A DNA stretch of 64,000 nt, from positions 10,928-74,927 of the forward strand of contig JAUREO010000002.1 of NCBI GenBank assembly GCA_030827365.1, in the 5' to 3' direction. How positions within the stretch are numbered: position 1 is the stretch's first letter; each line of letters opens with the position of its first letter. This stretch comes from Poseidonia sp. GTDB lineage: Archaea > Thermoplasmatota > Poseidoniia > Poseidoniales > Poseidoniaceae. The notes below the pieces were generated by a model. The model did no database searches and was not told the origin of the DNA. It saw only the letters and a list, made by a program, of their open reading frames with translations. The translations under genes and the position numbers were made by a program. Below are positions 29,656-51,507 of this stretch, piece after piece.

Positions 29656-30426
29656 TGGGTCAATATCTGTGTCACTTTCTCCAACTATATCTTGAGGAGC
29701 AGAGAGCCTTGGTTGTGCATTGGCAAGGGATTGTTGCACACTATCTTCGATGGCACGGGCGTATTCGAGTAAGTCGTTGAGGGGGATGTCAATGTTTGTC
29801 ATGTCGCTTACCGCCTCAATAGCAACTGCTGCGGCTCTCGCATCGGGGTACAGTGGACTCGCTTCGGCGAGGAGGGCTGTAACATCAAGTCCCAATCGAT
29901 CACCTTCACTTAACAGAAACCCTGTAATTCCTGTCACAATTCCTTCTTGGATGGTGTTAATACCCAAACTTTTGAGTTGTTTTCTCGATGATTCGCTGGT
30001 CGAAACACCAAATAACTCACTTTCATTACTGTCCTTCGATAGTCTTGGAACACCATCGATGATAATGAGGCGTTCGAAATTTCCTTTGGTGTACCATTCG
30101 AGCACGGTCGAACCGAACATGACGTCCATTTCATTCTTGAATTGCAGTTGTGAAATGAAAACACCAAGTCCCTCAGTTTGATAGATTCGAACAGGATGTT
30201 TAGGAATTTCATCTTGAACAAGCGCAACGGCTGGAAAGTCTGCGTGCATGACTGTACCAAGTTGCCTCATATTGAGTGAATTGATCAAGTGAGCTGTGGC
30301 TATAGCCCCCACCTTTCCATCGGTGGTAAATCCACAAATGGCAACCCCGCCCGTTGCATTTGGGTCAGCGTCTTTTTGCAACATCAATGAATAACCCGGC
30401 ATCAGTGTATCCATTGTTCCACCCAA
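29644..30426 (-). CDS. PAC2-family proteasome assembly chaperone homolog (paralog 1)
   Basis: PAC2/DUF75-like: GVAICGFTTDGKVGAIATAHLI...ASPLYPDARAAAVAIEAV. The PDARAAA motif is shared with paralog 2. Confidence 0.65.
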   Translation of the reverse strand: MGGTMDTLMPGYSLMLQKDADPNATGGVAICGFTTDGKVGAIATAHLINSLNMRQLGTVMHADFPAVALVQDEIPKHPVRIYQTEGLGVFISQLQFKNEMDVMFGSTVLEWYTKGNFERLIIIDGVPRLSKDSNESELFGVSTSESSRKQLKSLGINTIQEGIVTGITGFLLSEGDRLGLDVTALLAEASPLYPDARAAAVAIEAVSDMTNIDIPLNDLLEYARAIEDSVQQSLANAQPRLSAPQDIVGESDTDIDPSFM

Positions 30427-30462: not shown

Positions 30463-33400
30463 CTAATCCTGCCACTCAGCCCAATCATCCCAGCCTTGTT
30501 CTCTGTACCACCAAACACCGAGTTCATCTTCATACCACTCAGTGCCATCCTCATCGATAGTGATGCCATCATCCGATGCCTCTTCTTGGTGTTCTTCAGG
30601 TTCTTCTTCTGATTCTTCGATGACATCGATTTGTCTTTTCTCGCCAAGACTGAAGTCGATACCTCGTTCTTCTGGTGCATCTTCACCAATGGTTTTTCCT
30701 TCTGCTTTCAGGGCATCAAGTGATTTTATCTCAACCTGTACATTCTCTCGGTCTTCGGGTTCATCAGTAGGTTGAACCATGTCCATTGCTTCTTCATACC
30801 AATCATCACCATCGTCTTCATCCTCACGGTCGGACCTTGCAGAAACAATCTTTGAAACAACGAGAATAACGACGACGAGCGCCAGTATTCCACCTCCAAC
30901 AGACAGCAATATGCTTTGAAGACTTGATGTCGATTCTGGTGTATCACTTGACTCTGGTGTATCGATGATAGGGTCATCAATATTCCAACGTAGTAAAGAG
31001 GCGGAAGAAGAGGTCAAGTCGGCTGATTCGGTCCATGTTGTTTGAATGGTGATTGTCGAATCATAAGACCCTCCAGAAGTGAGAACGACTGTTGTATCTC
31101 GGTTAAGAAGAATGGTCACCGTCTTCGTCTCATTGTCTTGAAGTGACAAGCCGTCTGCTGAAAACGAAACGCCGACAATATCCATACTTTCAATGACAAA
31201 TGAAACATCGACCGAAAATGGATTTGGATTCTCTAAACTACACTCATATGTTACCGAACTCGCACCCACTTCAAACGGAAGCGAAAGATCTGGGCAACTC
31301 AAGATGACATCGGTAATATCAGTTGGACTCCAATCTTCAGTCGTGTTGTTTTGATTGGAATCATCTGCGTAATTCAAGGTCACCTCAGCCGCCGTTTGTG
31401 AGTAAAATAGATGCTCTTCGAGACCTGTCAAACGAATCTCAAGCAATTGTCCGTCTTCAGCACTACCTGTAAGAAGCATGGTGCCTGATATCGAGGTAGT
31501 ACCCTCATCGTGGAGCGATCCGTCGGAAGATTTTCGTTTCCACTCAAGTGTGCCTGTCGATAGAAGTTCATCTTGAATTGACGGTGTAGATGTCAATGAA
31601 ATTTCGACAGCATATTGGCCATCAATGAGTTCTGATTCGGATGGCATTGATACATCGATTATTGCTCCACCAAGGACCATTAATTCTGAAGAAGTAGGTG
31701 CAAGAGGTTGCTCGGTTGGAACATCTTGGCCAGCAAATGATGCTTCAATGGTGAGTTGACCAAGCAATGAAGTTACTTCGGTGATGGTTGAAAAGTCCGT
31801 CAATGAAACGGAGCCAAACCCTGCATCATCGGTGACAAGGTCAACTTGATGTGAGCCTAAATCATGAGACAATGTAACTGTCACTTCTTTCGAGGCCACA
31901 ATACCTTCACTCGATTCGAGATTGATTTGAATTTCAAATGATTCGTCGAGGACAACAGTGTGTTGATCGGAAAGGTGAGAAGTGTTTGTTACGGAGATTG
32001 TCACTGTTGTATCTAAAACAACATCATTCCGTGGATAAATAGGTCCGACAGATACTACTGTCGTGGTGTAATTTCCATGTTCATCAGCACCAACAACGCC
32101 AAGGTAATATCCAGTTCCATCCACAAGCGTTTGTCCAGAAGCATCTTGGATGAGCTCAATACTGGTGACCGAACTATCCACGGTCTCTGCAACATTCATT
32201 CCGCTCACATTCGAGAATGATGATGTGCTTACAAAGATATGATACTCTTCCACACTCGAATTTCCTGCATCCCATGAGACGAGAATGGCACTCCCCTCAT
32301 CATCAGGGCGATCGCTCGCACTGACATTTTCTATCTGGCCAGGAGCAGGTGGAAAGGGAACTGTTACATTGAGAGGTTCGGAAAGATTGCTGACAATTCC
32401 GAAATCATGAATCGAACGAACGTAATAGGAATAGGTTGTGTTTGCTACGACATTGACATCAATGGATAGATTTGAGATTGTAGAATCATATGGCTGTGCA
32501 ACAGTGTCAACTGTTCCACCAAGTGGTGTTCGATACACAGCAAAATTCAACAAACCTTCACCGAAATAAGATTGGTTTTGCCATGCGATTTGAACCATTG
32601 TCGATGTCAGTTGGTCCAGCCTCAATACCGGTGTGGGTGGAACAACAAGATTTGGAGCTCCGTCCGAGTAAAGAATGCTAAGGGCGACTAAATTCACTGA
32701 ACCTTGTGCGGAACTGTTGAACGGCATATCAAATGAAAACGTCCCGTTTCCAAGAATCATTTTTTGATTCATTATGTTGGTAAGATTACCGATGATGTGT
32801 GGATTGATATCAACAATAAAATCGGCAGTGTATCGAATGGACATATTGCTCAGGACAAATGTTCCATTTCCGCTTGAGTCGTAGCTCATGTTGAATGTTG
32901 ACATTTTCACTCCGTATCCGTCGGTTGAATAGCTCCATCCATTTGATACCAATGAGAGAACGTTGGCGAGTTGATTTGACAAATCGGGTATTTGCAATGG
33001 TGAGGAGCCTGCCGCCCCGTTTCCAGCATACCCTTCGGCAGAGACATCCATATCTCCATTTTTGTCAATGTCGTACATCGCCCTGTGCCAAGTGCCAATG
33101 TAGACGCCTTTTTGATTTCCTTCTCCTGCAGCAACAACCTGATCTGTTATGCCATCGCCATCAAAATCGAGTGTTTGGACCATCGTTGGGTTCGTCCATG
33201 GTTCGAGATAAAATTCGGTGGAATTCAAGCTTGACTCGGTGACATGATGGCCGACGAGTTTTCCTTCTTTCGTTGCGGGATTGTTGTCGGTAATTCCTGC
33301 ATCTGGTATGAACACTGAAAATTGACCATCGCCATCGTGGTCAAAGATTCTTGCTGAAGTCAAATCCAAAGCTGATGTTTGTGTTGAAATTGACCATGTC

Positions 33401-34614
33401 GAGCCAGTATTGTTGGCGAAAACAAGGCCCTGTGGGCTTGAAGCGATGAAATCGATGTCTGAATCTCCATCAAGGTCACCGGGGATTGCTCCTGATGGTA
33501 AACCGTCAAAGACCACCGATGTCGGAGAAAGCCCAGTAGATGCTTGATAAATCACTTCAGTGCTGTGAACTTCAAACGAATTATCGGTCACGATGGCGGT
33601 ATAATCCGAATTAGGCCCGTCGAATTTCATGACATAGAGTGCGACGAGTGTAGCGGGGACCGCTGAATTGTTTTCGTTAATGGTGGCGTTCCCGTTCTGA
33701 CCAATAGCCGCAAACACGGTATTCCTAGCATCAAATTCTTGCAGTGCAACTTCGCCATTGTTTCGAATGGTGATTAAATCCGAGGCCCCATCTCCCGTGA
33801 GGTCTCCGACTGCAATGTCAATAATGGTTTGAGAAATAGAATTGTTAACCTGTTGGTCAAACTGACTGGTTGTTGTGTTGTACATATGAATACACAATTT
33901 GCCTGAGGTAAGGTTGACCGATGCAACATCTGCAAATCCATCGCCGTCAAAATCATCAGCAAGCACCCTATTACTTGCACAAGTCGAATTCGATGCGATG
34001 GAAGAAACACCTCCACTTGACATTGAAAACACATGGATTTCTGTTGATGTGCCGTTTTGTGCAAGTAAAACCACATCGTCAAGTGCATCTCCATCAACGT
34101 CGCTGGTTTGAATGTCTTTGACTTGACCAATTGGATAAAATCCGCCACCTACGTTTGATTGATATATCGTATCGAGGTTAATTGAATCGATGGTTAAGCC
34201 ATAAGGTAGGAAAATATCTGAAGAATTGGACATGGAATTGACTGTAGATGAAATTGTATCAACCACTGCTCCCCCATCAAACACATTTTGGTCGCCGATG
34301 GGACCGTACGAAGGGTCGGTAAAATTCCATTCATTTTGCCCATCTTCGTCGATATCGAGCCAAAGTTGGCCAGGTGATTGATAAGAAGATGTGGTTTGAA
34401 TCATGAATGTGGCATTCTCAACGGTGGTATTTCGCACGAGATTAATCGATACAGTCGTTGTAGTTTGACCACCCAAATCAAGTTGAAATTGGGCGGAACC
34501 GTCTGAAAAATTTACGATGCTACCTCCACCATCAGCATGTGCAGGAAGTAAAGGGAAAATGAATGCTGAAAGAACCATACATGTCAAAAAAGCCACTTTT
34601 TTTTGCCGGGACAT
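30463..34614 (-). CDS. giant surface protein with integrin-alpha-like FG-GAP/VCBS repeats, Ig/FN3-like region, C-terminal TM anchor and acidic cytoplasmic tail
   Basis: Signal peptide MSRQKKVAFLTCMVLSAFIFPLLPAHA. At least six D-x-D-G-D motifs (DVDGDALDDVVL, DFDGDGFADVASV, GDLTGDGASDLITI, GDLDGDSDIDFIAS, FDHDGDGQFSVFI, DFDGDGITDQVVAA). C-terminal TM ILALVVVILVVSKIV followed by an acidic W-rich tail. Confidence 0.7.
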   Translation of the reverse strand: MSRQKKVAFLTCMVLSAFIFPLLPAHADGGGSIVNFSDGSAQFQLDLGGQTTTTVSINLVRNTTVENATFMIQTTSSYQSPGQLWLDIDEDGQNEWNFTDPSYGPIGDQNVFDGGAVVDTISSTVNSMSNSSDIFLPYGLTIDSINLDTIYQSNVGGGFYPIGQVKDIQTSDVDGDALDDVVLLAQNGTSTEIHVFSMSSGGVSSIASNSTCASNRVLADDFDGDGFADVASVNLTSGKLCIHMYNTTTSQFDQQVNNSISQTIIDIAVGDLTGDGASDLITIRNNGEVALQEFDARNTVFAAIGQNGNATINENNSAVPATLVALYVMKFDGPNSDYTAIVTDNSFEVHSTEVIYQASTGLSPTSVVFDGLPSGAIPGDLDGDSDIDFIASSPQGLVFANNTGSTWSISTQTSALDLTSARIFDHDGDGQFSVFIPDAGITDNNPATKEGKLVGHHVTESSLNSTEFYLEPWTNPTMVQTLDFDGDGITDQVVAAGEGNQKGVYIGTWHRAMYDIDKNGDMDVSAEGYAGNGAAGSSPLQIPDLSNQLANVLSLVSNGWSYSTDGYGVKMSTFNMSYDSSGNGTFVLSNMSIRYTADFIVDINPHIIGNLTNIMNQKMILGNGTFSFDMPFNSSAQGSVNLVALSILYSDGAPNLVVPPTPVLRLDQLTSTMVQIAWQNQSYFGEGLLNFAVYRTPLGGTVDTVAQPYDSTISNLSIDVNVVANTTYSYYVRSIHDFGIVSNLSEPLNVTVPFPPAPGQIENVSASDRPDDEGSAILVSWDAGNSSVEEYHIFVSTSSFSNVSGMNVAETVDSSVTSIELIQDASGQTLVDGTGYYLGVVGADEHGNYTTTVVSVGPIYPRNDVVLDTTVTISVTNTSHLSDQHTVVLDESFEIQINLESSEGIVASKEVTVTLSHDLGSHQVDLVTDDAGFGSVSLTDFSTITEVTSLLGQLTIEASFAGQDVPTEQPLAPTSSELMVLGGAIIDVSMPSESELIDGQYAVEISLTSTPSIQDELLSTGTLEWKRKSSDGSLHDEGTTSISGTMLLTGSAEDGQLLEIRLTGLEEHLFYSQTAAEVTLNYADDSNQNNTTEDWSPTDITDVILSCPDLSLPFEVGASSVTYECSLENPNPFSVDVSFVIESMDIVGVSFSADGLSLQDNETKTVTILLNRDTTVVLTSGGSYDSTITIQTTWTESADLTSSSASLLRWNIDDPIIDTPESSDTPESTSSLQSILLSVGGGILALVVVILVVSKIVSARSDREDEDDGDDWYEEAMDMVQPTDEPEDRENVQVEIKSLDALKAEGKTIGEDAPEERGIDFSLGEKRQIDVIEESEEEPEEHQEEASDDGITIDEDGTEWYEDELGVWWYREQGWDDWAEWQD

Positions 34615-40588: not shown

Positions 40589-40954
40589 TTACAAGTTGAC
40601 TTGATGCGAAATATCCCCAAGAATTTCCGCGTCCTCATATGGGTCATCAAGGTTTGAAACATCAACGATTTCGACTTCGTTGGTTGTCGAAAAATCTTCC
40701 ATTTCATTGCTGGCAAGAATCACATTGACATCTACTTCACCAACATCGTACTCGGGTGTTGCAACCTCAACTTTTTGTTCAATGGATGTATCATCATCAT
40801 CTTCGAAAAGGACCTCCGCTGATTGTTCAAATTCTTCTTTCATGTCATTAAACTGTTCTCGAAGCAAATCGTCTTCATCCAAAGGTTCGCCATCGCTCTT
40901 TTGCTTTGCTGACGAAAAAAATCGACGAAGCCAATCAGTTAGCGCCATGTTCAA
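40589..40954 (-). CDS. small highly acidic hypothetical protein
   Basis: 121 aa, rich in D/E (EEFEQSAEVLFEDDDDTSIEQ). No motif. Confidence 0.35.
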   Translation of the reverse strand: MNMALTDWLRRFFSSAKQKSDGEPLDEDDLLREQFNDMKEEFEQSAEVLFEDDDDTSIEQKVEVATPEYDVGEVDVNVILASNEMEDFSTTNEVEIVDVSNLDDPYEDAEILGDISHQVNL

Positions 40955-41006
40955 CCAAAATAGCTCCTCCTATGAGAATGATGTGAAGACTTGACTCAAT
41001 GGAAAA

Positions 41007-41867
41007 GTGCGTGATGTTCAAATGCCTGCACATCTCGTTGGATTCATGGGTGTTGATTTCTTTGAAGGTGAACGCGTGCTCGCGTTTGACTTAGAAACCA
41101 CTGGAATTTCCACTTCAAGAGACCGGATTGTCCAATATGCTCTCATTGGCTCAGATGTCGATGGTACCTCAATTCACTTGGACAAATTGGTTCATCCACA
41201 ACGCAAAATTCCGAGAGATTCAAGTGAAATCCACGGAATATTCGATGCAGATGTTCAGGATGCCGAGCCTTTTTCTCACCATTCAAAAAAACTTGCTGAA
41301 CTGATGAATGGTGCTATTATTGTGGGCCATAATGTCCGCCAATTCGACCTTGCTATGCTCGAACAAGAATTTCTTCGTCTCGGTCAACTTGCTCCGAAAC
41401 CTAAAGCAATTTTTGACACGCTTGAAATTGTAAGAAGACTCAAAGTTCCGCGGCCACACAATTTGGGAAGTCTGTGTCGCCGACATCATATCGATTTATC
41501 AAACGCCCATACCGCTGGGGCAGATGCTGCTGCAACGCTTCTGCTTTTTTGGCAACTCTCACTCGATTACGCCCCCATGTTTCGAAAATCCATTGAGGAA
41601 TTAGAACGCTGGTTTGCCCATGGTGATATCACAAATCAAGACGCTTCGGAATTAGGTCGAAGTCTTGATGATTTACCACTTGTCGACTCCGAAGGAAAAA
41701 TTCGCAGAGATGGAGACCAGCTCATCCTCGCTTTTGGCAGACATCGCGGCGAGGATGTAAAAATCGTAGCAAAGGATGACCCCGCCTATCTCCATTGGAT
41801 GTTATCGCCAAATGGATTAGATGATGAGCATATTCGAACTGTTATTCGAAATTACATCAATGCTTGA
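41007..41867 (+). CDS. DnaQ-like DEDDh 3'-5' exonuclease with about 110-aa C-terminal extension
   Basis: Exo I VLAFDLETTG, Exo II GHNVRQFDLAMLEQEF and Exo III HTAGADAAAT (H-x4-D). Extra C-terminal domain of unknown type (GRHRGEDVKIVAKDDPAYLHWML). Confidence 0.75.
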   Translation: MRDVQMPAHLVGFMGVDFFEGERVLAFDLETTGISTSRDRIVQYALIGSDVDGTSIHLDKLVHPQRKIPRDSSEIHGIFDADVQDAEPFSHHSKKLAELMNGAIIVGHNVRQFDLAMLEQEFLRLGQLAPKPKAIFDTLEIVRRLKVPRPHNLGSLCRRHHIDLSNAHTAGADAAATLLLFWQLSLDYAPMFRKSIEELERWFAHGDITNQDASELGRSLDDLPLVDSEGKIRRDGDQLILAFGRHRGEDVKIVAKDDPAYLHWMLSPNGLDDEHIRTVIRNYINA

Positions 41868-43018
41868 CCTTGATCTGAGATAGGATTCCATGGAAGTACA
41901 TCGCACCAATGGCCAACTCGAATTGAATCATTTCGCATCATGGCTGAAGAGATAAATGTGACACCTTTGTGCGAATCCCACATTTCTTCAAACGCTTCTT
42001 TTCCTCTTCCATCAAAATTCGCCGTAAAACGTTGGCCGGTTGGGAGAGGGTGTCCCTCGGTTGAGGATGGCTCACACAATTCAACAATCGCTACACCACT
42101 TGATTCATCGTAGCTATGGATGAGGACAACCATATCCATGAAGTCGCCCGAGTGCAACGTTCCAGTTGCTTGACGCCAATTCCACCAATGCGGGCACCAC
42201 GCCTTAAAATCGCAAAATCCTCCACAGGTTTCCTCTCCAGGAATTGCTGGAAGGGGTTGATCGGATATCTGTGTTGCTTCCCAAGCTGCGTACGCGTCTT
42301 CAAGAACGCTTGGTCCCGATGCTGGCCATTTTGAAGCCGTTTTTGTGTACCAACCTTCGGTACGAACTTCTGGGGCATTCGGATTATTGGCAAGTAATAT
42401 GTCTCTGTACATTCGGAGTTGACGATTGACTTCTTCCTTCAACTTCGTCTCTGGTGCATTTCCTGTTTTCAAATCTGCAACCAACCAACCAGTCATGTTG
42501 CCATCCATATCAACATCAGCGAGAAGTAAATCAAGTCGGCCCATGAGGCGACCATCGCGGGTTTTTAATTCTCCTTCTACAGCGATGACATGTTGTTGCA
42601 ATTTTTTCCACAAACCATAGGAAATTCGCTCTGGAGCAAGGCCTTTGACCCCGATATGATCAAGAAGCATGATGACTCCACCTCGCTGCTGTCGTTTTGC
42701 TTCAGTGAATTGTTCTTCTTTCCACATCGGACGGCGGGGAGTTGATAGAAAGACCGCTTTTTCTTCGTCCCATCGGTTTTGAAGCATCTGCAATGCACAA
42801 TCAGGAAACCACCCCATTTCCATATCTTCTTGGTCAGAAATGTCCATGTTGAGTAAATCTTCAATCGAAGCGTGAACGGCCGTTCCAAGCGATGCAGCCA
42901 TGCCCGCTTTGCGAGGGAAGCCTTGACGACTTAACCAATACATACGTGGACAAGTTTCGTATCTATTCCATGCAGAGGGCGAGAGTTGATGTTTTCGCTC
43001 CTCTTTGTCCTCGGTCAT
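41852..43018 (-). CDS. standalone Cas4/Exo5-like PD-(D/E)xK nuclease with four-Cys Fe-S cluster and C-terminal extension
   Basis: SPSAWNRYETCPRMYWL (Cys 1). GRLDLLLADVDMDGNMTGWLVADLKTG (D...D/ExK). QLRMYRDILL (QxxxY). CGGFCDFKAWC (Cys 2-4). About 120 extra C-terminal residues. 3' end overlaps the DnaQ-like gene by 16 bp (convergent). Confidence 0.65.
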   Translation of the reverse strand: MTEDKEERKHQLSPSAWNRYETCPRMYWLSRQGFPRKAGMAASLGTAVHASIEDLLNMDISDQEDMEMGWFPDCALQMLQNRWDEEKAVFLSTPRRPMWKEEQFTEAKRQQRGGVIMLLDHIGVKGLAPERISYGLWKKLQQHVIAVEGELKTRDGRLMGRLDLLLADVDMDGNMTGWLVADLKTGNAPETKLKEEVNRQLRMYRDILLANNPNAPEVRTEGWYTKTASKWPASGPSVLEDAYAAWEATQISDQPLPAIPGEETCGGFCDFKAWCPHWWNWRQATGTLHSGDFMDMVVLIHSYDESSGVAIVELCEPSSTEGHPLPTGQRFTANFDGRGKEAFEEMWDSHKGVTFISSAMMRNDSIRVGHWCDVLPWNPISDQGQALM

Positions 43019-43103: not shown

Positions 43104-43904
43104 ATGGAAGGCCCAATTGTGAAACTCAACAAGCCGGTAAAAGAAAAAACATTGGTCATTACCTGTTTTCCAAGCATCGGCATGGTATCAAGCATCGTAG
43201 CTCACTACCTCATTGATAACCTCGAATTGGAATTTGTTGGCGGCGTGATTGATGACCGCCTCCCTCCTCTTGCTATCGTTAAAAATGGGGAGCCACTCCC
43301 TCCAATCCGGGCTTACAGTGGAAAACGAAAATGTTCGATTCGTGGGTGCGATGAAGTCATTCTCCTCATGAGTGAACTTGTTGTTCCCGACCCTCTTGTT
43401 CATCGATTAGTCTGGTCCATGTTAGAATGGTCGAAAGAAAACAATATCGAAGCGGGCGTTCTTATCGATGCATTCGCAAAAGATGGTTTGAGCGGTTCTC
43501 TCGATGGTTCTGAGCCTGTCATCAACTATGAGGATACTGAAGCTATCGATGTCATTGGTATCGGGGCAAATGAAACCACACGCGAACTTTTGTCCAGCAT
43601 GGGTATCCAATTAGCTGAAAGTGGCGTGGTTCGAGGAATGAATGGTGGATTGCTTGCTGAAGCCATGCGACGAGGCATCGATACCATGTCTTTGATGGTC
43701 GAAGCAGACCCTCGCTTTCCAGATGCCAGAGCTGCAGCCGCCCTCATTGAACATCTCAATCTCCTCCTACCAACCATTGACCTCGACCATAAACCACTCC
43801 TGCAAGAAGCAGAAGAAATCGAATTGTCCATCAAAGCGATGATGGAAGGAATGGATCTCAATTTGGAACACTCATCAGGACCAAATTCAATGCTCTACGG
43901 CTGA
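43104..43904 (+). CDS. PAC2-family proteasome assembly chaperone homolog (paralog 2)
   Basis: LVITCFPSIGMVSSIVAHYLI...EADPRFPDARAAAALIEHL. Same PDARAAA core as the 29644..30426 protein. Confidence 0.65.
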   Translation: MEGPIVKLNKPVKEKTLVITCFPSIGMVSSIVAHYLIDNLELEFVGGVIDDRLPPLAIVKNGEPLPPIRAYSGKRKCSIRGCDEVILLMSELVVPDPLVHRLVWSMLEWSKENNIEAGVLIDAFAKDGLSGSLDGSEPVINYEDTEAIDVIGIGANETTRELLSSMGIQLAESGVVRGMNGGLLAEAMRRGIDTMSLMVEADPRFPDARAAAALIEHLNLLLPTIDLDHKPLLQEAEEIELSIKAMMEGMDLNLEHSSGPNSMLYG

Positions 43905-44459: not shown

Positions 44460-45451
44460 CAGAGTTCCCCTCCTTGGTCATCGTCTTCATCTTCTATGAA
44501 TAGGAAATTTTTCTGTTGGGTTTGACGTGGTGATGACATCAGTGTTGCGAGGGCGAGATAAAATCCACAAGAAAAGATGAGGAGTGAAATGGATTGAATA
44601 TACATTGCAGTATTGTCAATGTCGATGTTATCGTTCAAACTTGAAATTTGTAGCCAAGGGGTGGTCTGCTCGATGTCGTTTCCTTGTAATGTGACTCGCC
44701 ATTCTACAATGTCAGGGGATAATGTGGCTGGAATGACGATTTCCCAACGCTGTTCATCTTCTTGCTCGGCTACAAAACTATGGGTCTGCCCACCTTGTAA
44801 ACGCCATTCCACAAGCACACTCTCAACCTCGATGGTGGAAAGGACAAATGCAGTTTCCTCACCATTGTTTCGCTGTGTTGGGAGGATTGTGTTAGAATCG
44901 ATTCGTGGTAAGTTTTCGGGGACAGGTAACACCTCAATTTGTATGGGCTGGTCAGATATACCAAAGAATGGTGTGTCACTTTGTTGTGCCGAACCATGAT
45001 GAACAGATGCATAAAATGTGTAGATCCCACTGCTCGTAGGTGCTCGTAGCACCCATTCAACAGCGATACTTGAACCAGAATGTTGCACCTCAAGATAATT
45101 TTCGTTGCCTCCCCCTGAATGACTTATTGTGGTCCAATCTTCATCTTCAGGTGTGTCCTCAAAACCGGTGGTATCGGTAAGAAGAAAGACCCCGATGAGA
45201 CTCGTTTGAAGTTGGTCAAGATTGGATACTTCTACTCGAACTGAAGTTGGTAATCCTGCGTATGCCGTCGAAGTTTGTTCCAATGTAATTGTATAGGGAG
45301 ATGTTGCATTCAAATCTGCATCGCCATGGCACGCTCCGCCGCATTGCATGTCTTGCGTGGATGGGCCAACACCACCTGGATTGGCTTGAGAAAATGATGA
45401 AAGAATCAAGAGTCCGATGAAAAGAACAAGTGTCTTCGTTGAAGGTTTCAT
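44459..45451 (-). CDS. secreted protein with C-terminal TM anchor, hypothetical
   Basis: Signal peptide MKPSTKTLVLFIGLLILSSFSQA. Thr/Ser-rich beta region. C-terminal anchor ISLLIFSCGFYLALATLM followed by an acidic tail. ATGA overlap with the upstream gene. Confidence 0.45.
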   Translation of the reverse strand: MKPSTKTLVLFIGLLILSSFSQANPGGVGPSTQDMQCGGACHGDADLNATSPYTITLEQTSTAYAGLPTSVRVEVSNLDQLQTSLIGVFLLTDTTGFEDTPEDEDWTTISHSGGGNENYLEVQHSGSSIAVEWVLRAPTSSGIYTFYASVHHGSAQQSDTPFFGISDQPIQIEVLPVPENLPRIDSNTILPTQRNNGEETAFVLSTIEVESVLVEWRLQGGQTHSFVAEQEDEQRWEIVIPATLSPDIVEWRVTLQGNDIEQTTPWLQISSLNDNIDIDNTAMYIQSISLLIFSCGFYLALATLMSSPRQTQQKNFLFIEDEDDDQGGEL

Positions 45452-47949
45452 TGTGAAGCCCCCTTTCTAAACATCAAAAGAAAGACAACAACTCCTGCAA
45501 GAAGGATGACTGTTGAAAACAATATTGGGAGCATTGGAGTTTGTTCGGCTTCCAGTTGAACTTGGCTAAAATCAATGGTTTCAGATTGACTTTGTCCTGC
45601 TTGTAATTCTTGGTCGTTCACGACTGGAACGATAGAGAACGACTGCTCGATAGCCAGACTGCTCTGTCCATCAAAGGTGAGCCTACTCGTCTCGCCAATC
45701 AATCGGCCATCTTCATAAATTCGAAACAGTGCATCTGGACCATCCCATGCCCATGAAAGTGAAAATTTCTCTTGTGATTGCTCAAGAATGACATTTGAAA
45801 CTCTCGGGCCTTGGACAGACTGGAATGTTTGTTTTGTTTCTGACATTGCACCGGATGAATCTGTCACCATAAGTTTGACTTCAAAATTTGTAGGTGCAAT
45901 GATTTCCAAAACTGAGTCAGACCCGACAAAGCGACTTTGACCATCACCTGTATTAAGATACCAAGCAAATGAGACAAGACTGCCATCGGGGTCAAAAGAT
46001 GTTGATGCATCGTATCGTACTATTTCCCCAGTCCATACCACCTCGGACTGAATTTCGAAATCCGCCGTGGGTGGCGCATTTTGGATCATGAAGGTGAATT
46101 CAAATGTTTGTCCTTCATCGTCACCATCTGACAATTCTATCACTAATTTCCATTGTTGTCCTGGGCCAACTTTGGATGCCGGAACGACCATTTCATCATC
46201 GAGGGTACCATCACGAAATCCATTTCTATACCATGATATTGAATAATCAATGCTATCATCATCAGCGTCAAAAAACGAAATTGAAGGTACTAAATCCTGC
46301 TTGGCAATTGGCTGTTCTTCTAATTCAACTGCAACGGTTGGAATCGAATTAAGAATAAGCACGGAAGCCGAAGTTGTCACTTCACTCACATCTTCACCAT
46401 CCGATAGTACGACAGATGCACTCCATTGATCCCCTTTTTTGGTGTATTCGCTTGGTAAGGTTGTTGAAATTCCTGTGTCAACTGATGCTTCACCATTGTT
46501 CCACATGACCGAAAAAATGGAGATTGCATCTCCATCTGCATCCGTTGCTGCAAAATCAAACGTCAAGTCTTCGTCTGATGGATTTTCAATTGAACCAAGA
46601 GTAATACTCATGAGGTGTGGTGGAGAATTTTGAATGAGAATGAGGTCGGATGGAGTCCAATTCGACCAACCAAATCCGTCGAACACACGAACTATCGCTT
46701 GCCATGATTCGCCTTTCGTTGTGCTCGATGAAGGCAAAGTAGCACGTGTTTGCTCTTCAACTTCAACACCATCACGAAGCCAAGAAATTTGATGCTCTTG
46801 TTCGGTATCACCCTCTTCATCTGCGATGGTCCATGCGACAACAATGTCATCGGACGATGTTGGGGTTGAAGGCGTAACTGAAATCGAAGTTATCGTTGGT
46901 CCTGAGTTATTTGAACCAACAAAAACACTAGGGCTTGTCACTTCAACCGAATCAATGCCATCATCGAGAACAAGGACGGCTTCCCAAGTATCACCAATCC
47001 TTGTCGCAAGGCTTGGTACGGTCGTGAGGTTATCGAGACTGTCGATTCTTTGCCCATCAACTTTCCAAAATAAGGAGGATGAAATGCTATCACCATCATC
47101 ATCTGTGGTTGAAAAAGTGGCCAAAAGGTCATCTTCGGTTACTGGTTGGGTGGGTGAAATCACAAATTCGACGGCTGAAGGAAGAGTATTCGTGATAGTA
47201 ATGGTTGCCGAGGTTACACTTTGACCTGTATCGAACCCATCAGAAGGCGTGACCACAACAGACCACTGCTCGCCTCTGGTGGTTTGGGATGATAGCACCG
47301 TGGTTGTCGTAACACCTGTGACAAGCGAGCCATCTTTGAACCACTGAATGGTTGTTCCTGATTGCTCATCACCGTCGAGGTCAAAATAATCGTAACTGAG
47401 AACCAAATCGTCGCTCGTAGTAGGGTTCTCAGGACTGATGACAACATTTGAGACTGAAGGAGGATTGTTTGCATCAACAAATTCTGAAATCTGGACGGAT
47501 GCTGTCCCTTTAATGTCATTTTTATTGGAACCGCCACCATCTGCATTCAACACAGCGACACTGATGGTCACATCACCGCTACCGATGGTAGGTGCTGTCC
47601 AATCGACCTGCCAAGCGTTACGTTGGAAATCGTTGTGGGTTGCTGAGAGTTTATTCGTCGATATTTGAACCATCGTACCAGGATTGGACAATTCACCTTT
47701 GGTGACCTGCAGTGAAAAACCACCTGTTGAATGGACAGGATTGACCGAACTAATGTTGATTGTGTAAGTCGTACCAGCAACATAAGCCGAGGGATATCCT
47801 TCAAGTGTTGGCGTTAACAAAGATGATGGTGTGTGACACGAACACCCACTTGAACTGTTGAAAACACCATCATCCCTACTTTGGCTCAGCGGCGTGGCAA
47901 AAAGCGAAACAAGGAGAAGAGTAGAGAGCAGCAGCGTTCTAACCTTCAT
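45448..47949 (-). CDS. surface protein with at least 5 tandem Ig/cadherin-like (PKD-like) repeats of about 95 aa, C-terminal TM anchor
   Basis: Signal peptide MKVRTLLLSTLLLVSLFATPLSQS. Repeated SDDLVLSYDYFDLDGDE...WFKDG / DDLLATFSTTDDDGDS...WKVDG / SDDIVVAWTIADEEGDT...WLRDG / DEDLTFDFAATDADGDA...WNNGE / FFDADDDSIDYSISWYRNG blocks. C-terminal LPILFSTVILLAGVVVFLLMF. Start set at the internal ATG. Confidence 0.6.
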   Translation of the reverse strand: MKVRTLLLSTLLLVSLFATPLSQSRDDGVFNSSSGCSCHTPSSLLTPTLEGYPSAYVAGTTYTINISSVNPVHSTGGFSLQVTKGELSNPGTMVQISTNKLSATHNDFQRNAWQVDWTAPTIGSGDVTISVAVLNADGGGSNKNDIKGTASVQISEFVDANNPPSVSNVVISPENPTTSDDLVLSYDYFDLDGDEQSGTTIQWFKDGSLVTGVTTTTVLSSQTTRGEQWSVVVTPSDGFDTGQSVTSATITITNTLPSAVEFVISPTQPVTEDDLLATFSTTDDDGDSISSSLFWKVDGQRIDSLDNLTTVPSLATRIGDTWEAVLVLDDGIDSVEVTSPSVFVGSNNSGPTITSISVTPSTPTSSDDIVVAWTIADEEGDTEQEHQISWLRDGVEVEEQTRATLPSSSTTKGESWQAIVRVFDGFGWSNWTPSDLILIQNSPPHLMSITLGSIENPSDEDLTFDFAATDADGDAISIFSVMWNNGEASVDTGISTTLPSEYTKKGDQWSASVVLSDGEDVSEVTTSASVLILNSIPTVAVELEEQPIAKQDLVPSISFFDADDDSIDYSISWYRNGFRDGTLDDEMVVPASKVGPGQQWKLVIELSDGDDEGQTFEFTFMIQNAPPTADFEIQSEVVWTGEIVRYDASTSFDPDGSLVSFAWYLNTGDGQSRFVGSDSVLEIIAPTNFEVKLMVTDSSGAMSETKQTFQSVQGPRVSNVILEQSQEKFSLSWAWDGPDALFRIYEDGRLIGETSRLTFDGQSSLAIEQSFSIVPVVNDQELQAGQSQSETIDFSQVQLEAEQTPMLPILFSTVILLAGVVVFLLMFRKGASQ

Positions 47950-47974
47950 AGACAGAAAATCATGGTGGAGTTTT

Positions 47975-50200
47975 TTATTCTTCGTTTTGATTTGAGCCAA
48001 AATCAAACAATGTTGTTCGATTTGGCTTTGCTTCAACAGTTTGATTTGATTCAATTGCACCTGTACGAACGCCGGATGGATTCAATTCAATGCTGGATGA
48101 AAATCGTTGTTCATCCCAAATCTCTACCCCAAGTGTCTCAGCTTTCGCTCGTTTGGAACCTGCATTTTCTCCAGCGAGGAGGACGGATAATTTGCTTGAC
48201 ACACTACCGACCACCTTGCCACCATGCATCCGGATGAGGTCCTCAAATTCTTTTCGGCCTTGGCTTAGTGTTCCTGTAATACAAAATGTCATTCCATCAA
48301 ATACAGCACCTGCCGTTGAGGTCACGACTTCATTTTCGACATTGACATGCTTCATGAGTTCGACGATCATCGCCATTCGAACATGAAGACCGTCGCGAAT
48401 GTGCAAAGCCACAACATCACCTACGCCTTCAATGGCTTGCATTTGTCGAAGTGCTTGATTCTCAGAATACGGTTTTCCTTGTTCATCTTTCTGAGGGCCA
48501 AACTGTTCACTATCAGTCTCAGCAAACGCAAGTTCAACCCATTCTAAAAGGGATTGAAGTGATTGCAAATGTTTTGCGATGGCCATGCCAAGTTCTGGGC
48601 CAATTCCAGGAAGCCCGAGGGCATGAAGGAATTTTGAAAGGGTCATCGTTTTGGTTTTTTCAAGTTCACCAAGAACATTGAGAGAGGACTTTTCACCCAT
48701 TCGCTCAAGGCTTTGTAAATCATCAAGGGTCAATGTGTACAAATCTGCAATTGAAGAAATTTTGCCTGCTTCGAGCAACTGTTCAACTAATTTTTCGCCA
48801 ACGCCATCCATTTCCAAAGCACGACACCAGTACAATATTGCACGACCTGTTCGAGCGGTACATGCAAGGTTGATGCATTTGAGAAATGCACCTTCCAATT
48901 CCACTTCGCCTGAACAAGCTGGGCAAGTATTTGGAATTAGAATGTCAAATGATGTGGGAAGCTGCCCGTTAAATTGCGAACCATCGGCGTGAAATCGGTT
49001 GTTCAAATCATGCTGTGAAGCCTTACCTAAACTCGATTCTATTTTTGGAATCACGTCGCCCCTTCTGACAATTTTGACTTTGTCGCCAATGGCTAAACCA
49101 AGTCGTTCAATCTCTCCGACATTGTGCAATGTTGTGTTTTCAACGGTCACTCCTCCTACCCTTTGGGGAGCAATCTTCGCTACGGGGGTGATGTTACCAG
49201 TTCTCCCGGTTTGCCAAACAACATCGAGGAGAACAGAAGTGGCTTCTTCTGGTGGGAATTTCCAAGCAAGAGCCCACCTCGGGTGATGTGCTGTTTTTCC
49301 AAGTTGTTCTCGATACTGTAAATCATCGACCTTGAAGACGACGCCATCGATTTCGTATCTAAAACCTGAACGCTTCTTCTTCCACTCAAGCGTAACATCA
49401 CGCAATGCTTCAATGGATGTTTCAGGCATTTTAGAACGATGAATACTCCATTCTGCAGGCTCGATGGTTGAATGTTCGATAAGCCAAGCAAGCACTTCGG
49501 AATCATAGGTAAAATGTGGAGGTGCGTCGCTTTTCGTATGACGGAAGTGCTCCTTAGGAAATTGGGCATCGTAGGCATGGAATCGTAAATCCGCGGCGTC
49601 TGCTTTTCCAATTTCCAATTTCTGCCGCAATGCTCCAGCCGCAAGATTACGGGGATTTGGCGAAATGTGTTTGTATTTTGACTCAAAAATATCGAGCGGC
49701 ATCACCACTTCACCTCGCACATGAATGTCGATATTTGCATTCAATTGAATAGGAATGTTGGGTATTTTGAGCACGTTTCTCGTGACATCTTCGCCCCGTT
49801 CACCGCTTCCTCTCGTCGCTGCACGAACAAGACGGCCGCGTCGATATTCGATGGATAAGGCTGAACCATCGAGTTTGGGTTGTGCTAAGAAATTCAAAGC
49901 ACCATTTGTTGTCGTTCGAACAAAATGGGCAATTTCATCTTCGGTCGTTGCTTTATCCAAACTCAACATTGGAAACATATGGTCGACTTTTTGTGTGCCT
50001 GGGTCTATGTCTGCACCAACTCGGTTGAGTTGTGGATGCTCTGGAGAAAGTCTTTTGAGTTCATCCCATAGTTCATCGAATTCAGCATCTGTAATTTCAG
50101 TCTGGGCTTGATTGTAGTACAGATCGGAATGGTACGCAACTTGTTCTGCAAGCCATGAAATGCGCTCTACGACGGGCAACTGTGCGTCGTCTTGAGCCAT
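47975..50200 (-). CDS. ligA: NAD(+)-dependent DNA ligase
   Basis: Adenylation motif FLAQPKLDGSALS (KxDG). OB fold, Zn-finger Cys (CPACSGEVELEGAFLKCINLAC), HhH region and C-terminal BRCT (MTFCITGTL...GGKVV). Start at MAQDDAQLP. Confidence 0.85.
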   Translation of the reverse strand: MAQDDAQLPVVERISWLAEQVAYHSDLYYNQAQTEITDAEFDELWDELKRLSPEHPQLNRVGADIDPGTQKVDHMFPMLSLDKATTEDEIAHFVRTTTNGALNFLAQPKLDGSALSIEYRRGRLVRAATRGSGERGEDVTRNVLKIPNIPIQLNANIDIHVRGEVVMPLDIFESKYKHISPNPRNLAAGALRQKLEIGKADAADLRFHAYDAQFPKEHFRHTKSDAPPHFTYDSEVLAWLIEHSTIEPAEWSIHRSKMPETSIEALRDVTLEWKKKRSGFRYEIDGVVFKVDDLQYREQLGKTAHHPRWALAWKFPPEEATSVLLDVVWQTGRTGNITPVAKIAPQRVGGVTVENTTLHNVGEIERLGLAIGDKVKIVRRGDVIPKIESSLGKASQHDLNNRFHADGSQFNGQLPTSFDILIPNTCPACSGEVELEGAFLKCINLACTARTGRAILYWCRALEMDGVGEKLVEQLLEAGKISSIADLYTLTLDDLQSLERMGEKSSLNVLGELEKTKTMTLSKFLHALGLPGIGPELGMAIAKHLQSLQSLLEWVELAFAETDSEQFGPQKDEQGKPYSENQALRQMQAIEGVGDVVALHIRDGLHVRMAMIVELMKHVNVENEVVTSTAGAVFDGMTFCITGTLSQGRKEFEDLIRMHGGKVVGSVSSKLSVLLAGENAGSKRAKAETLGVEIWDEQRFSSSIELNPSGVRTGAIESNQTVEAKPNRTTLFDFGSNQNEE

Positions 50201-50240
50201 ATTTCTCCAACTCTTCAACCATTCTTGAACCCTTGCGCAC

Positions 50241-50819
50241 CTACTCAAGGAAGTTCAATTGGCCTGTTGATAGGTCATAGATGCATGTCACGATTTTGAC
50301 TTCACCGTTAGTCACTGCACGGGCGATAATGTCGGAATGTTTGGTCAACCTCTTCGCTGTTTGAATGGTTGAAGATTGCACCGCGTTGGTTGTATCATCT
50401 GCTTGTCCTTCAATGAGATGAGAGATATGCTCAACGAGGTGCAACAGATTTGGTGATTGGGGCGAATGCCCTTCCAAATGTTGCATGGTTGCCCCTATAG
50501 CACCACACATGGTGTGCCCCATAACAACGATGAGTGGGCAATTCAACTGGACAACTGCGAATTCTAAACTTGCAATTTGAGTCTCTGTTGCTATGGCACC
50601 TGCAGTTTTTACGACAAAAATATCACCAAACGACATGTCGAAAATAAAGGCTGGAATGGCTCTTGAATCTGAACACGTCAAAACACTCGCCAATGGATTC
50701 TGTCCCTGAACTTGCGTGCTTGAGGTCGCAGTTTCGAGATTAAAATTCGATTGTTGACTTCCAGTAAGAAACCGCTGGTGGCCATTCATGAGTTGTTCAA
50801 ACGCCTCGTCTGGACTCAT
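50241..50819 (-). CDS. beta-class carbonic anhydrase
   Basis: CSDSR and HTMCGA zinc-ligand motifs. About 190 aa from the internal ATG; the track extends to 50921. Confidence 0.75.
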   Translation of the reverse strand: MSPDEAFEQLMNGHQRFLTGSQQSNFNLETATSSTQVQGQNPLASVLTCSDSRAIPAFIFDMSFGDIFVVKTAGAIATETQIASLEFAVVQLNCPLIVVMGHTMCGAIGATMQHLEGHSPQSPNLLHLVEHISHLIEGQADDTTNAVQSSTIQTAKRLTKHSDIIARAVTNGEVKIVTCIYDLSTGQLNFLE

Positions 50820-50877: not shown

Positions 50878-51507
50878 CTACTCCTCTTGGGAGAATGTTT
50901 CAGATTGTGTAAATCGTTCAATTCGATGTTTTGCTTTTTCTAAATCGTGATATTCTCCCCCGAGCGGCAGAGGTGCAAATGGACCCCAACCCTTTCGGAG
51001 CAGCATGATTCGAGAACGAGGTTGGCGTTTTGCAAGTTTTAGCCTACCCCATTCATACCGCTGTCCATCTGCAAACAGGTGGGTTGGAGTAATGGCGTAT
51101 CGTTTTGGAATCAAAAGAGAAATAAAATGGAGACCAAGAAGGACATCCCAAGCAATCGCATATCCAACGGGTGTATCAGATACGCTAAGTAACGCCCAAG
51201 GAAGAACCATCATTGCTGCCATTGAAAGTAAATTACCCCACTGACGGGCTAGCTCATGAACGCCTTCGCTTGACCAACTAAAAGATTCATTTGGCAACTC
51301 ACCTAAAATTGGTACATCTGTTCGTTGTTTGGTAAGCCAATATCCATCCCAAAGAACAATGATGGCAAGAACTGCAACACAAGCTGAGGCAACTGCATCT
51401 GTGGTCAATATGGAAATTGGGCTCACGTTTTTTCCCTCATCACGGGTTATCAAAAACGTCTCGTTTTTGAAGCGAGGAAAGGTCAAGTGCTTCAGCAGCA
51501 GAACCAT
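50878..51507 (-). CDS. membrane protein, hypothetical
   Basis: 3-4 TM helices. The ATG start at 51507 overlaps the upstream giant gene by 68 bp. An alternative GTG start at 51426 avoids the overlap. Confidence 0.35.
   Translation of the reverse strand: MVLLLKHLTFPRFKNETFLITRDEGKNVSPISILTTDAVASACVAVLAIIVLWDGYWLTKQRTDVPILGELPNESFSWSSEGVHELARQWGNLLSMAAMMVLPWALLSVSDTPVGYAIAWDVLLGLHFISLLIPKRYAITPTHLFADGQRYEWGRLKLAKRQPRSRIMLLRKGWGPFAPLPLGGEYHDLEKAKHRIERFTQSETFSQEE

Follow-up and report, generated by a model that had tools for sequence, protein, structure and literature searches.

A stand-alone Fe-S-type nuclease with a predicted OB fold lies tail-to-tail with a DEDDh exonuclease in Poseidoniales

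The locus described here is part of a 64,000 nucleotide stretch of Poseidonia DNA, to which we refer as the window. It comprises a tail-to-tail gene pair, evident from the ORF list. An exonuclease gene, on the plus strand, converges with a nuclease gene on the minus strand. A small ORF, encoding a very acidic protein, is divergent from the exonuclease gene. The features, and two genes that provide context, are as follows.

40589..40948, minus strand: small, very acidic ORF (119 amino acids from the ATG at 40948; the ORF list starts at TTG 40954).
41046..41867, plus strand: gene for a DEDDh (DnaQ/ExoX-like) 3'-5' exonuclease (273 amino acids from the ATG at 41046; RNase_T).
41076..41567, plus strand: DEDDh catalytic domain (residues 24-187 of the 286-residue ORF).
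41721..41861, plus strand: ExoX-like C-terminal domain (residues ~239-285; a beta-hairpin, then three helices).
41852..41867, no strand assigned: overlap of the convergent 3' ends (16 bp; stop codons TGA and TAA).
41852..43018, minus strand: gene for a stand-alone Fe-S-type PD-(D/E)xK nuclease with a predicted C-terminal OB fold (388 amino acids; PDDEXK_1).
41879..42151, minus strand: predicted OB-fold domain (residues ~290-380; beta1-beta2-beta3-alpha-beta4-beta5).
42170..42988, minus strand: RecB/AddB/AdnA-like nuclease domain (residues 11-283; from motifs, Cys pattern and Foldseek).
43104..43904, plus strand: gene of the PAC2 (proteasome assembly chaperone) family, a context neighbour (Pfam).
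47975..50248, minus strand: LigA, an NAD-dependent DNA ligase, context in the same collinear block (Pfam domains and TIGR00575).

The original prediction, made from the DNA letters, had described the two nuclease genes as tail-to-tail, with 3' ends that overlap by 16 bp. This is correct, and the coordinates given for all three ORFs agree with the ORF list. The gene starts require adjustment. While the ORF spans stand as listed, the longest exonuclease ORF begins at GTG 41007 and encodes 286 amino acids. The start is most likely ATG 41046, since this codon specifies M14 of the longest ORF, which is an invariant alignment column. For the acidic ORF, the probable start is ATG 40948. Note that exonuclease residues are numbered, throughout, according to the 286-residue ORF. 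Spacing between the convergent 3' ends varies among related loci. There are overlaps of 15-21 bp in loci L001, L004 and L088, and gaps of 8-13 bp in L086 and L087. The idea that the 16 bp overlap is a conserved regulatory feature was rejected, because the spacing varies between +21 and -13 bp, and insertions interrupt it.

The exonuclease had been recognised as a DEDDh enzyme with all three Exo motifs, and our data agree. The protein exceeds the gathering cut-off for Pfam RNase_T (PF00929) with a score of 88.8 bits, against 24 required (E 7.8e-25). The motifs are formed by D28 and E30 (Exo I), D114 (Exo II), and H168 and D173 (Exo III). Each of these residues is invariant in an alignment of 34 homologues. 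In a structure model of the protein (pLDDT 81), the fold matches the exonuclease domains of DinG and PolC, DNA polymerase III epsilon, TREX2, RNase T, and ExoX. Assignment to a specific family is less straightforward. The TIGR00573 'epsilon subunit family' domain model is barely passed (71.6 bits for a cut-off of 71.5) and, in an NCBIfam profile search, the protein falls below every equivalog cut-off. We rejected the possibility that the protein is DNA polymerase III epsilon, and so a DnaQ orthologue, on the basis of scores for TIGR01406 (76.2 vs 222.7) and PRK05711 (75.2 vs 196). Orthology with ExoX was also rejected. Here, the PRK07983 score was 41.7 vs 202, and the match is limited to the C-terminal 47 residues.

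Within that C-terminal match, positions 172-218 of the 220 in the PRK07983 (ExoX) model align with exonuclease residues 239-285 (E 7e-11). Pfam ExoX-like_C (PF20600) gives 25.3 bits on the full protein and 27.8 bits, for a cut-off of 26.5, if the C-terminal 95 amino acids are scanned alone. The same region is modelled with pLDDT values of 81-89. According to the model, a linker of ~50 residues, partly disordered, joins it to the catalytic core. The exonuclease orthologue in MGIIb locus L088 has 195 amino acids and is without the ExoX-like C-terminal domain. We conclude that the domain is dispensable in one MGIIb lineage.

The convergent gene encodes a protein that passes Pfam PDDEXK_1 (PF12705) with 73.3 bits vs 22 (E 3.8e-20). 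Residues 11-276 cover the whole of this model (positions 1-247 of 247). The nuclease motifs are GRLD (D163), DLK (D182 and K184), and QxxxY (Q200 and Y204). All five of the residues named are invariant in an order-wide alignment. In addition, the protein has the cysteine pattern C23...C265-x3-C269-x5-C275. Across the same alignment C265, C269 and C275 are invariant, and C23 is missing solely from one sequence, which is truncated at the N-terminus. As judged from this pattern of ligands, the nuclease would be expected to bind a 4Fe-4S cluster. The protein aligns, motif by motif, with the nuclease of mycobacterial AdnA. Sequence searches of the PDB, using the nuclease or a nuclease profile, recovered AdnA marginally (E 0.01-0.02). 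A structure model (pLDDT 87, pTM 0.81) was then compared with known folds using Foldseek. The matches were AdnA (E 2e-6), Dna2, ACE1, AddB, Cas4 SSO0001, MGME1, and Exo5. Phage COG2887/PD-(D/E)XK nucleases are also structural matches.

The nuclease was initially labelled as a Cas4/Exo5-like Fe-S nuclease. Description as a four-Cys PD-(D/E)xK enzyme, of the RecB/AddB/Cas4/Dna2 superfamily, remains appropriate. Conversely, the family names must be dropped. Membership of the Cas4 family was rejected since the TIGR00372 score is 15.9 bits, for a cut-off of 65; the Pfam Cas_Cas4 model also had no match to the nuclease at E up to 0.01. Assignment as Exo5 was rejected because there was no Pfam Exo5 match at E up to 0.01, and the structural match (7lwa) has an E value of 1.3e-2. 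Nor did the nuclease arise by recent duplication of an AddA-like or AddB-like nuclease domain in the window; BLASTP detects no significant similarity to these. We conclude that the protein is an order-specific branch of PDDEXK_1, in the AddB/AdnA/Cas4 superfamily.

Both proteins had been noted to have C-terminal regions of unknown fold, and structural modelling was recommended. Folds can be given for both, and 'unknown' no longer applies. For the exonuclease, the region is ExoX-like_C. For the nuclease, we predict an OB fold. The strand and helix order in this part of the nuclease model is of the OB type, with domain pLDDT values of 85-94. Foldseek matches that fall within the C-terminal domain alone were Teb1 OB-B (E 3.8e-3), Mycoplasma SSB, HIN domains, and PriB. 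These matches have probabilities of 0.75-1.0 and E values between 4e-3 and 5e-2. With E values as high as 10 admitted, a Pfam scan of the isolated region came back empty, and PDB sequence searches gave no match for the domain. Residues F293, G322, G369, W371 and P379 are invariant in the order-wide alignment. Taken together, the predicted fold and the invariant aromatic residues, F293 and W371, suggest a module that binds ssDNA. A second metal site, formed by C315 and C372, was considered and rejected, since neither Cys is conserved in MGIIb. In the remote two-domain relatives P0337, P0367, P0348 and P0366, the Cys cluster is followed by a beta-rich tail, and these tails fail to align with the OB profile. 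The new detail of the locus is this predicted OB fold, fused to an order-specific Fe-S-type nuclease.

The small protein, divergent from the exonuclease, is indeed very acidic. It contains 30% D+E, has a net charge of -29 and a pI of 4.05, and is ~2 times as acidic as neighbouring proteins. There was no Pfam, NCBIfam or PADLOC match. Positional homologues, with an N-terminal MGLxDW motif in common, occur in Poseidoniaceae and L086, and are only 26-55% identical. At the equivalent position in MGIIb loci L087 and L088 there is no called ORF. The dN/dS ratio is ~0.2. Hence, this is a real, fast-evolving gene.

We examined distribution and inheritance. Relatives were found in 405 GTDB species genomes, and the best 80 of these are nearly all labelled Poseidoniales or euryarchaeote. 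There are hundreds of homologues at 55-70% identity. A search among 1.84 billion representatives indicates that the nuclease family is essentially confined to Poseidoniales. For both the nuclease and the exonuclease, dN/dS is 0.03-0.06, equal to values for the PAC2 and PKD neighbours. We conclude that purifying selection on both genes is strong. No copy of the nuclease was found in IMG/VR viral contigs, and those viral relatives of the exonuclease with alignments that span most of the protein are no more than 32% identical. Therefore, the notion of a magrovirus or mobile origin was dropped. In the literature on Poseidoniales nucleases, and on COG2887, we found no characterised close relative.

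A comparison of gene order in related genomes had been suggested with the original prediction. Of 89 related loci, 68 have the nuclease and exonuclease genes side by side and convergent, and this extends to loci where nuclease identity falls to 35-44%. The loci at 35-44% include those of MGIIb and the deep-branching L086 lineage. Note that ~30 kb around the pair is also collinear, and this includes ribosomal genes, LigA, PAC2, PKD, and TRM. For example, the window and MGIIb locus L088 have in common the order L18e-L13-S9-RpoN, LigA, PAC2, nuclease, exonuclease, PKD, 4HBT, a second PAC2, TRM, and AIRS. Where the flank of a related locus extends far enough, PAC2 is almost always found next to the nuclease, in divergent orientation. 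LigA passes TIGR00575 (549 bits for a cut-off of 444) and, in MGIIa, MGIIb and L086, is 0-3 genes from PAC2. The 64-kb window also contains AddAB-like genes and MCM. The two nuclease genes are tail-to-tail because this chromosomal region keeps its gene order across Poseidoniales (Marine Group II, MG-II). Extra DNA, of between 0.12 and 4.4 kb, is found between the two genes in at least 14 of the 89 loci, and such insertions break the adjacency in ~16-20% of species. In one inserted stretch that we checked, the DNA encodes a GAF-domain protein and hypothetical proteins. Given the wide collinearity, and the insertions, adjacency does not show functional coupling.

Our preferred reading, with a probability of about 0.65, is that the pair are two independent housekeeping nucleases of DNA metabolism, which would act on ssDNA ends with opposite polarity. 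Both are vertically inherited core genes and, in this reading, they form neither an operon nor a defence island, and are not left over from a CRISPR locus. Of the options raised initially, that of separate repair enzymes with a chance adjacency is the best fit, because the two genes are neighbours within long-range collinearity and insertions break the arrangement. The superfamily calls made at that stage also hold; the Cas4/Exo5 family assignment does not, and the defence option is unsupported. The two genes would be transcribed separately. By homology, the exonuclease, a bacterial-type DEDDh enzyme, would remove nucleotides from DNA ends, in the 3'->5' direction, by two-metal catalysis. By analogy, the nuclease, an 'iron-staple' PD-(D/E)xK enzyme, would bind ssDNA using its OB domain, and cut or degrade single-stranded 5' ends or flaps. 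The original prediction is not refuted by the test proposed with it. The genes are neighbours in most related loci, and both proteins score below the cut-offs for characterised orthogroups. The activities, including the polarity and substrates proposed for each enzyme, are therefore extrapolated from distant relatives. We infer that these enzymes have a role in repair, or in the processing of replication intermediates.

CRISPR adaptation modules recruit domains of both the Cas4 and the DEDDh type, and the pair could be the remnant of such a module (Cas4 and DnaQ) or an anti-virus defence module. The presence of ACE1 and Cas4 among Foldseek relatives of the nuclease is in keeping with this, as are the PADLOC matches. 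These are generic for the exonuclease (PDC-S48, and a CRISPR-associated 'DEDDh' model with E 7.8e-32) and weak for the nuclease (DruK, and Cas4 models at E 3e-4 or weaker, with the N-terminal motif only). However, each is a match to a single domain and, among the six neighbouring proteins scanned, PADLOC identified no defence system, and no other system component that might act as a partner. The TIGR00372 score, far short of the cut-off, also counts against a Cas4 origin. It had been noted previously that no cas genes or repeats are nearby and this is confirmed. A repeat search detected no CRISPR-like repeats in the window, there was no Rfam match in the window, and no cas domain was apparent among ~40 window ORFs scanned, or in related loci. 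The pair is thus without cas1, cas2 or a CRISPR array. Instead, it is a fixed core locus, in 405 species genomes, with LigA, PAC2, ribosomal protein and tRNA-modification genes as neighbours. The dN/dS values are like those of housekeeping neighbours, and there is no nuclease copy in IMG/VR. Vertical inheritance of a core locus, under purifying selection, with neither a PADLOC system nor a viral copy of the nuclease, leaves the defence option unsupported. We consider it extremely unlikely.

An unlikely, though more credible, proposal is that the enzymes cooperate. With one nuclease for the 5' ends of ssDNA, and the other a 3'-5' exonuclease, they would trim or degrade displaced strands, flaps or broken ends from both polarities, possibly feeding nicks to LigA. 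The predicted polarities would be complementary, and the convergent adjacency in 68 of 89 loci extends to MGIIb and L086. Maintenance of adjacency at 35-44% nuclease identity is also what a functional link would predict, and so counts against independence. Even so, convergent genes cannot be co-transcribed, and all other gene pairs of the region are equally conserved; the adjacency is therefore without specific signal. Insertion of up to 4.4 kb between the genes is tolerated, and the ExoX-like C-terminal domain was lost in one MGIIb lineage where the nuclease is intact. With respect to ligation, the LigA equivalog is close by, at a distance of 0-3 genes, in those loci of MGIIa, MGIIb and L086 that were examined, although PAC2, on the opposite strand, sits between LigA and the nuclease. 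MG-II is reported to have no ATP-dependent ligase, and to use the bacterial-type NAD ligase (PMC4153887), which is consistent with the proposal. So too is the role of ExoX, which in E. coli is one of the exonucleases responsible for 3'-5' excision during mismatch repair (PMC8744996). A parallel would be bacterial mismatch repair, in which RecJ/ExoVII and ExoI/ExoX form a redundant set. We judge a dedicated replication role to be improbable. Here, a DnaQ-like accessory proofreader would act alongside a Dna2/Exo5-like processor of long flaps, for Okazaki fragments sealed by LigA. The nuclease model aligns with Dna2 over 410-491 columns, and the exonuclease most resembles the exonuclease domains found in PolC and Pol III epsilon. 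The window also encodes MCM, and LigA is probably the sole ligase of MG-II (PMC4153887). Conversely, we detected neither a helicase domain nor, by inspection of the sequence, a clamp-binding motif, and the exonuclease scores far below epsilon and PolC equivalog cut-offs. Furthermore, archaeal PolB and PolD each bring a proofreading activity of their own. FEN-1 and RNase HII, listed for MG-II (PMC4153887), also argue against such a role. A broader and rather unlikely scenario would combine the nuclease, exonuclease and LigA. Trimming of ssDNA with two polarities, followed by ligation, would be specific to Poseidoniales, and would replace part of archaeal flap and end-processing in an order without ATP ligase. 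The acidic ORF might then encode a DNA-mimic regulator.

Independent housekeeping nucleases therefore remain our favoured explanation. The locus is not a new kind of system; the CRISPR and defence angle is unsupported, and conserved gene order accounts for the adjacency. Poseidoniales are among the most abundant archaea of the surface ocean. To our knowledge, they are uncultured and, hence, their DNA-maintenance toolkit is known from sequence alone. Alongside LigA and the AddAB-like genes of the window, the pair shows that several parts of this toolkit are of bacterial type. The order-specific Fe-S-type nuclease, fused to a predicted OB fold that lies outside domain databases, is a concrete, and cheap, biochemical target.

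How do these proteins compare with known systems? The nuclease is in the same Pfam family, PDDEXK_1, as mycobacterial AdnA/AdnB, Bacillus AddB, and COG2887 proteins. It has in common with AdnA, AddB and COG2887 the GRLD, D-x-K and QxxxY motifs, and the 1+3 Cys 'iron staple'. The nuclease domains of AdnA, AddB and Dna2, with phage proteins of the COG2887 type, are its nearest structural relatives, although sequence identity with solved or BFVD structures is just 10-19%. Unlike AdnA and AddB, the protein stands alone, without a helicase or inactivated-helicase body. The phage and COG2887 single-domain proteins that it matches are without a C-terminal OB fold, whereas one is predicted here. Cas4 proteins (TIGR00372/COG1468) resemble the nuclease at the level of superfamily fold and four-Cys Fe-S motif. 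However, the nuclease is ~180 amino acids longer, has the predicted OB domain and no cas context, and fails the Cas4 model. Archaeal solo-Cas4 family genes evolve vertically, as ordinary cellular genes, and the nuclease is likewise stand-alone, vertically inherited, and outside CRISPR loci (PMC5704561). The PD-(D/E)xK core is also common to Dna2, Exo5 and MGME1, eukaryotic nucleases that act on the 5' ends of ssDNA. Dna2 and Exo5 carry an Fe-S cluster, and the nuclease has the Cys pattern for one. Dna2 also joins its nuclease to beta-barrel or OB modules that handle ssDNA, and the Foldseek alignment exceeds 400 columns. Even so, the nuclease has no helicase domain, its domain order differs, and the likeness to these enzymes is structural only. 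For the exonuclease, the DEDDh core and fold are those of E. coli ExoX and the DnaQ family, including Pol III epsilon, the PolC and DinG exonuclease domains, and TREX1/2. It differs from ExoX and epsilon in that it is not an orthologue, contains a ~50-residue linker, and has an archaeal host. Nevertheless, the C-terminal domain of ExoX is homologous, over its whole length, to the C-terminal domain of the exonuclease.

The ORF list places three genes exactly where the original prediction had them:

40589..40954, - strand, small acidic ORF, divergent from the exonuclease
41007..41867, + strand, DEDDh exonuclease ORF
41852..43018, - strand, four-Cys PD-(D/E)xK nuclease ORF

As also described there, the two convergent genes share 16 bp at their 3' ends (41852..41867); their stop codons are TGA and TAA. 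The reported absence of CRISPR components nearby was borne out; the window has no CRISPR-like repeats, and scanning about 40 of its ORFs revealed no cas domain. No Rfam families were found.

The nuclease matches Pfam PDDEXK_1 across the full model (E 3.8e-20). Its GRLD (D163), DLK (D182/K184) and QxxxY (Q200/Y204) motifs, one N-terminal cysteine (C23) and three C-terminal cysteines (C265-x3-C269-x5-C275) agree with the enzyme type first proposed. The catalytic residues, together with C265, C269 and C275, do not vary within the nuclease family; C23 is missing from a single homologue, which is N-terminally truncated. The nuclease had also been called Cas4/Exo5-like, and this label survives at the level of superfamily fold. 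In Foldseek searches of the PDB, the nuclease domain finds AdnA (E 2e-6), Dna2, ACE1, AddB, Cas4 SSO0001, MGME1 and Exo5. Membership of either family does not survive: TIGR00372 scores 15.9 bits, against a Cas4 cut-off of 65, and neither Pfam Cas_Cas4 nor Pfam Exo5 gives a match. In BFVD, the nuclease domain resembles many phage 'COG2887/RecB family exonucleases' that consist of a single domain. No copy of the nuclease family was found in IMG/VR.

Both proteins were said to end in extensions of unknown fold, a description that now has to be replaced. In the nuclease model (pLDDT 87, pTM 0.81), the catalytic domain is followed by the order b1-b2-b3-alpha-b4-b5, which is OB-fold topology. A second group of PDB matches from Foldseek is limited to this C-terminal domain, namely Teb1 OB-B (E 3.8e-3), a Mycoplasma SSB, HIN domains and PriB. 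Pfam returns no family for it, even at E up to 10. We refer to a predicted OB fold, on the basis of the model and weak-to-moderate structural matches. No Pfam model covers this combination of nuclease and OB domains, and the characterised relatives compared do not have it. Note that remote PDDEXK_1/COG2887 relatives from other organisms (P0337, P0367, P0348 and P0366, one labelled 'bacterium') likewise continue beyond the Cys cluster, with a tail of 90-100 aa rich in beta strands. A nuclease-plus-barrel architecture may therefore be more widespread, although no alignment of these tails to the OB profile of the nuclease was obtained.

The exonuclease matches Pfam RNase_T (E 7.8e-25) and, as predicted, its Exo motifs are complete, with D28, E30, D114, H168 and D173 identical in all 34 aligned homologues. 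Since Met at ORF position 14 is invariant in the same alignment, translation probably begins at ATG 41046 and yields 273 aa. The C-terminal extension is ExoX-like. Residues ~239-285 match Pfam ExoX-like_C with 25.3 bits when the full protein is scanned, and the last 95 residues scanned alone score 27.8 bits (cut-off 26.5). The same residues match the final 47 positions of the NCBIfam ExoX model (E 7e-11). In the model (pLDDT 81), a linker that is disordered in part joins the DEDDh core to a beta-hairpin with three helices after it. In superposition, the modelled core fits Pol III epsilon, the exonuclease domains of PolC and DinG, TREX2, RNase T and ExoX. In two MGIIb loci (L088 and L089, 9189..9776), the orthologue is just 195 aa, without linker and ExoX-like C domain; the adjoining nuclease retains both domains, including the OB domain. 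Viral relatives covering most of the exonuclease are all at most 32% identical.

Where homologues are named, the label is Poseidonia, Poseidoniaceae, Poseidoniales or Thalassarchaeaceae, which places the window in a Marine Group II archaeon. The closest genome locus (L006, JAYNJV010000018.1, 'Candidatus Poseidoniales archaeon') is 98% identical, and nuclease relatives occur in 405 GTDB species genomes. Searching 1.84 billion cluster representatives with the nuclease profile gave only 184 matches at E up to 1e-3, mostly pieces of family members; just three clusters are full-length with both domains. After these comes a gap reaching to E ~1e-10, where matches have the nuclease domain in common only. 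Hence, the family is an order-specific, strongly diverged PDDEXK_1 branch. One locus (L026, NZEQ01000040.1), labelled 'Verrucomicrobiales bacterium isolate ARS100', has the complete Poseidoniales block of PAC2, nuclease (67% identity), exonuclease, acidic ORF and PKD, and so is probably a mis-binned archaeal contig. Database names for the two proteins are limited to 'PD-(D/E)XK nuclease family protein', 'RecB family exonuclease' and 'DNA polymerase-3 subunit epsilon'.

Against the closest genomes, dN/dS is 0.03-0.05 for the nuclease, 0.035-0.06 for the exonuclease, 0.04-0.055 for the PAC2 neighbour and 0.045-0.07 for the PKD neighbour. By this measure of sequence change, both enzymes behave as ordinary housekeeping genes. 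For the acidic ORF the value is about 0.2. Its predicted acidity is evident (30% Asp+Glu and net charge -29, versus 10-16% acidic residues in neighbouring proteins). Positional homologues are 26-55% identical and have an N-terminal MGLxDW motif in common; PEYDxGD and DPYExA patches are also present (40589..40948, -). It has no family match, and was not found in two MGIIb loci. The ORF is a real but fast-evolving gene; its product may be a DNA mimic, or may have no connection with the nucleases.

We sampled 89 loci with the nuclease. The exonuclease is convergent and within 120 bp in 68, and 0.12-4.4 kb separate the two genes in 14. Three loci extend 1.2 kb or more downstream and show no exonuclease there, and in four the contig end is too near to judge. 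Lineage-specific inserts of 0.4-4.4 kb occur at the junction in L037, L047, L074, L079, L051, L054, L048, L056, L072 and L084; the L047 insert (4.3 kb) has genes for six hypothetical proteins and one with a GAF domain. Convergent adjacency is kept at 35-44% nuclease identity, in MGIIb and a deep-branching lineage (3.0-Mb contig). The order in MGIIb locus L088 is L18e-L13-S9-RpoN, LigA, PAC2, nuclease, exonuclease, PKD, 4HBT, second PAC2, TRM and AIRS, which the window keeps over ~30 kb, with lineage-specific insertions. The 3' overlap varies among loci, from 21 bp to a 13-bp gap. Convergent genes cannot share a transcript. Hence, the pair is truly syntenic but, because its surroundings are equally conserved, overlap size varies and no transcript is shared, adjacency does not discriminate coupling from coincidence.

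Large predicted surface proteins (870-1850 aa; FG-GAP, PKD and beta-helix domains), all on the - strand, are interspersed with housekeeping genes at 30463..34614, 45448..48060, 51440..56269 and 58414..63966. They sit where the window has extra genes relative to L088. Two PAC2-family (proteasome assembly chaperone) paralogues lie 13 kb apart (29644..30426, -; 43104..43904, +), both positions being conserved in L088. Genes between LigA and PAC2 differ among related loci.

The window has other DNA-metabolism genes, including MCM and the following:

47975..50248, - strand, LigA, a genuine bacterial-type NAD-dependent ligase (TIGR00575, 549 bits; cut-off 444)
3972..12590, - strand, divergent bacterial-type AddAB/AdnAB-like helicase-nuclease pair
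8877..12590, - strand, 1237-aa protein of this pair, with C-terminal PDDEXK_1
7900..8880 and 3972..8012, - strand, AddA-like UvrD helicase with C-terminal PDDEXK_1, as two overlapping ORFs in different frames

The helicase N-domain profile runs on from one AddA-like ORF into the other, so the split would reflect a frameshift, assembly error or recoding. The stand-alone nuclease has no detectable sequence similarity to the nuclease domain of either the AddA-like or the AddB-like protein.

We favour two independent, vertically inherited housekeeping nucleases, with a probability of roughly 0.65. One is a DnaQ/ExoX-like exonuclease, of 3'-5' polarity to judge from distant relatives, and the other a putative Fe-S nuclease of the AddB/AdnA/Dna2/Cas4 superfamily. 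In the latter, ssDNA is probably held by the OB fold, and the PD-(D/E)xK site would cut 5' single-stranded ends or flaps. The main rival, which we consider unlikely, is a cooperating pair that trims ends of both polarities, perhaps feeding LigA. Such a pair would resemble bacterial mismatch repair, where exonucleases of 5' and 3' polarity, ExoX among them, are redundant (PMC8744996). In those MGIIa, MGIIb and L086 loci that were examined, 0-3 genes separate LigA from the PAC2-nuclease-exonuclease block, and MG-II is listed with a bacterial-type NAD-dependent ligase and without an ATP-dependent one (PMC4153887). The conserved adjacency fits cooperating and independent enzymes alike. Less likely again is a role at replication flaps; we give this little weight. 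A defence or CRISPR-derived role is highly improbable, and PADLOC reports generic domain matches only and no defence system.

The CRISPR-related attraction of the locus is not upheld, and independent housekeeping nucleases would hold nothing surprising to a specialist. What is new is the fusion of an otherwise familiar enzyme type to the predicted OB domain. Archaeal solo Cas4-family genes are described as inherited vertically, under selection of an ordinary kind (PMC5704561), a pattern matched by the pair described here.
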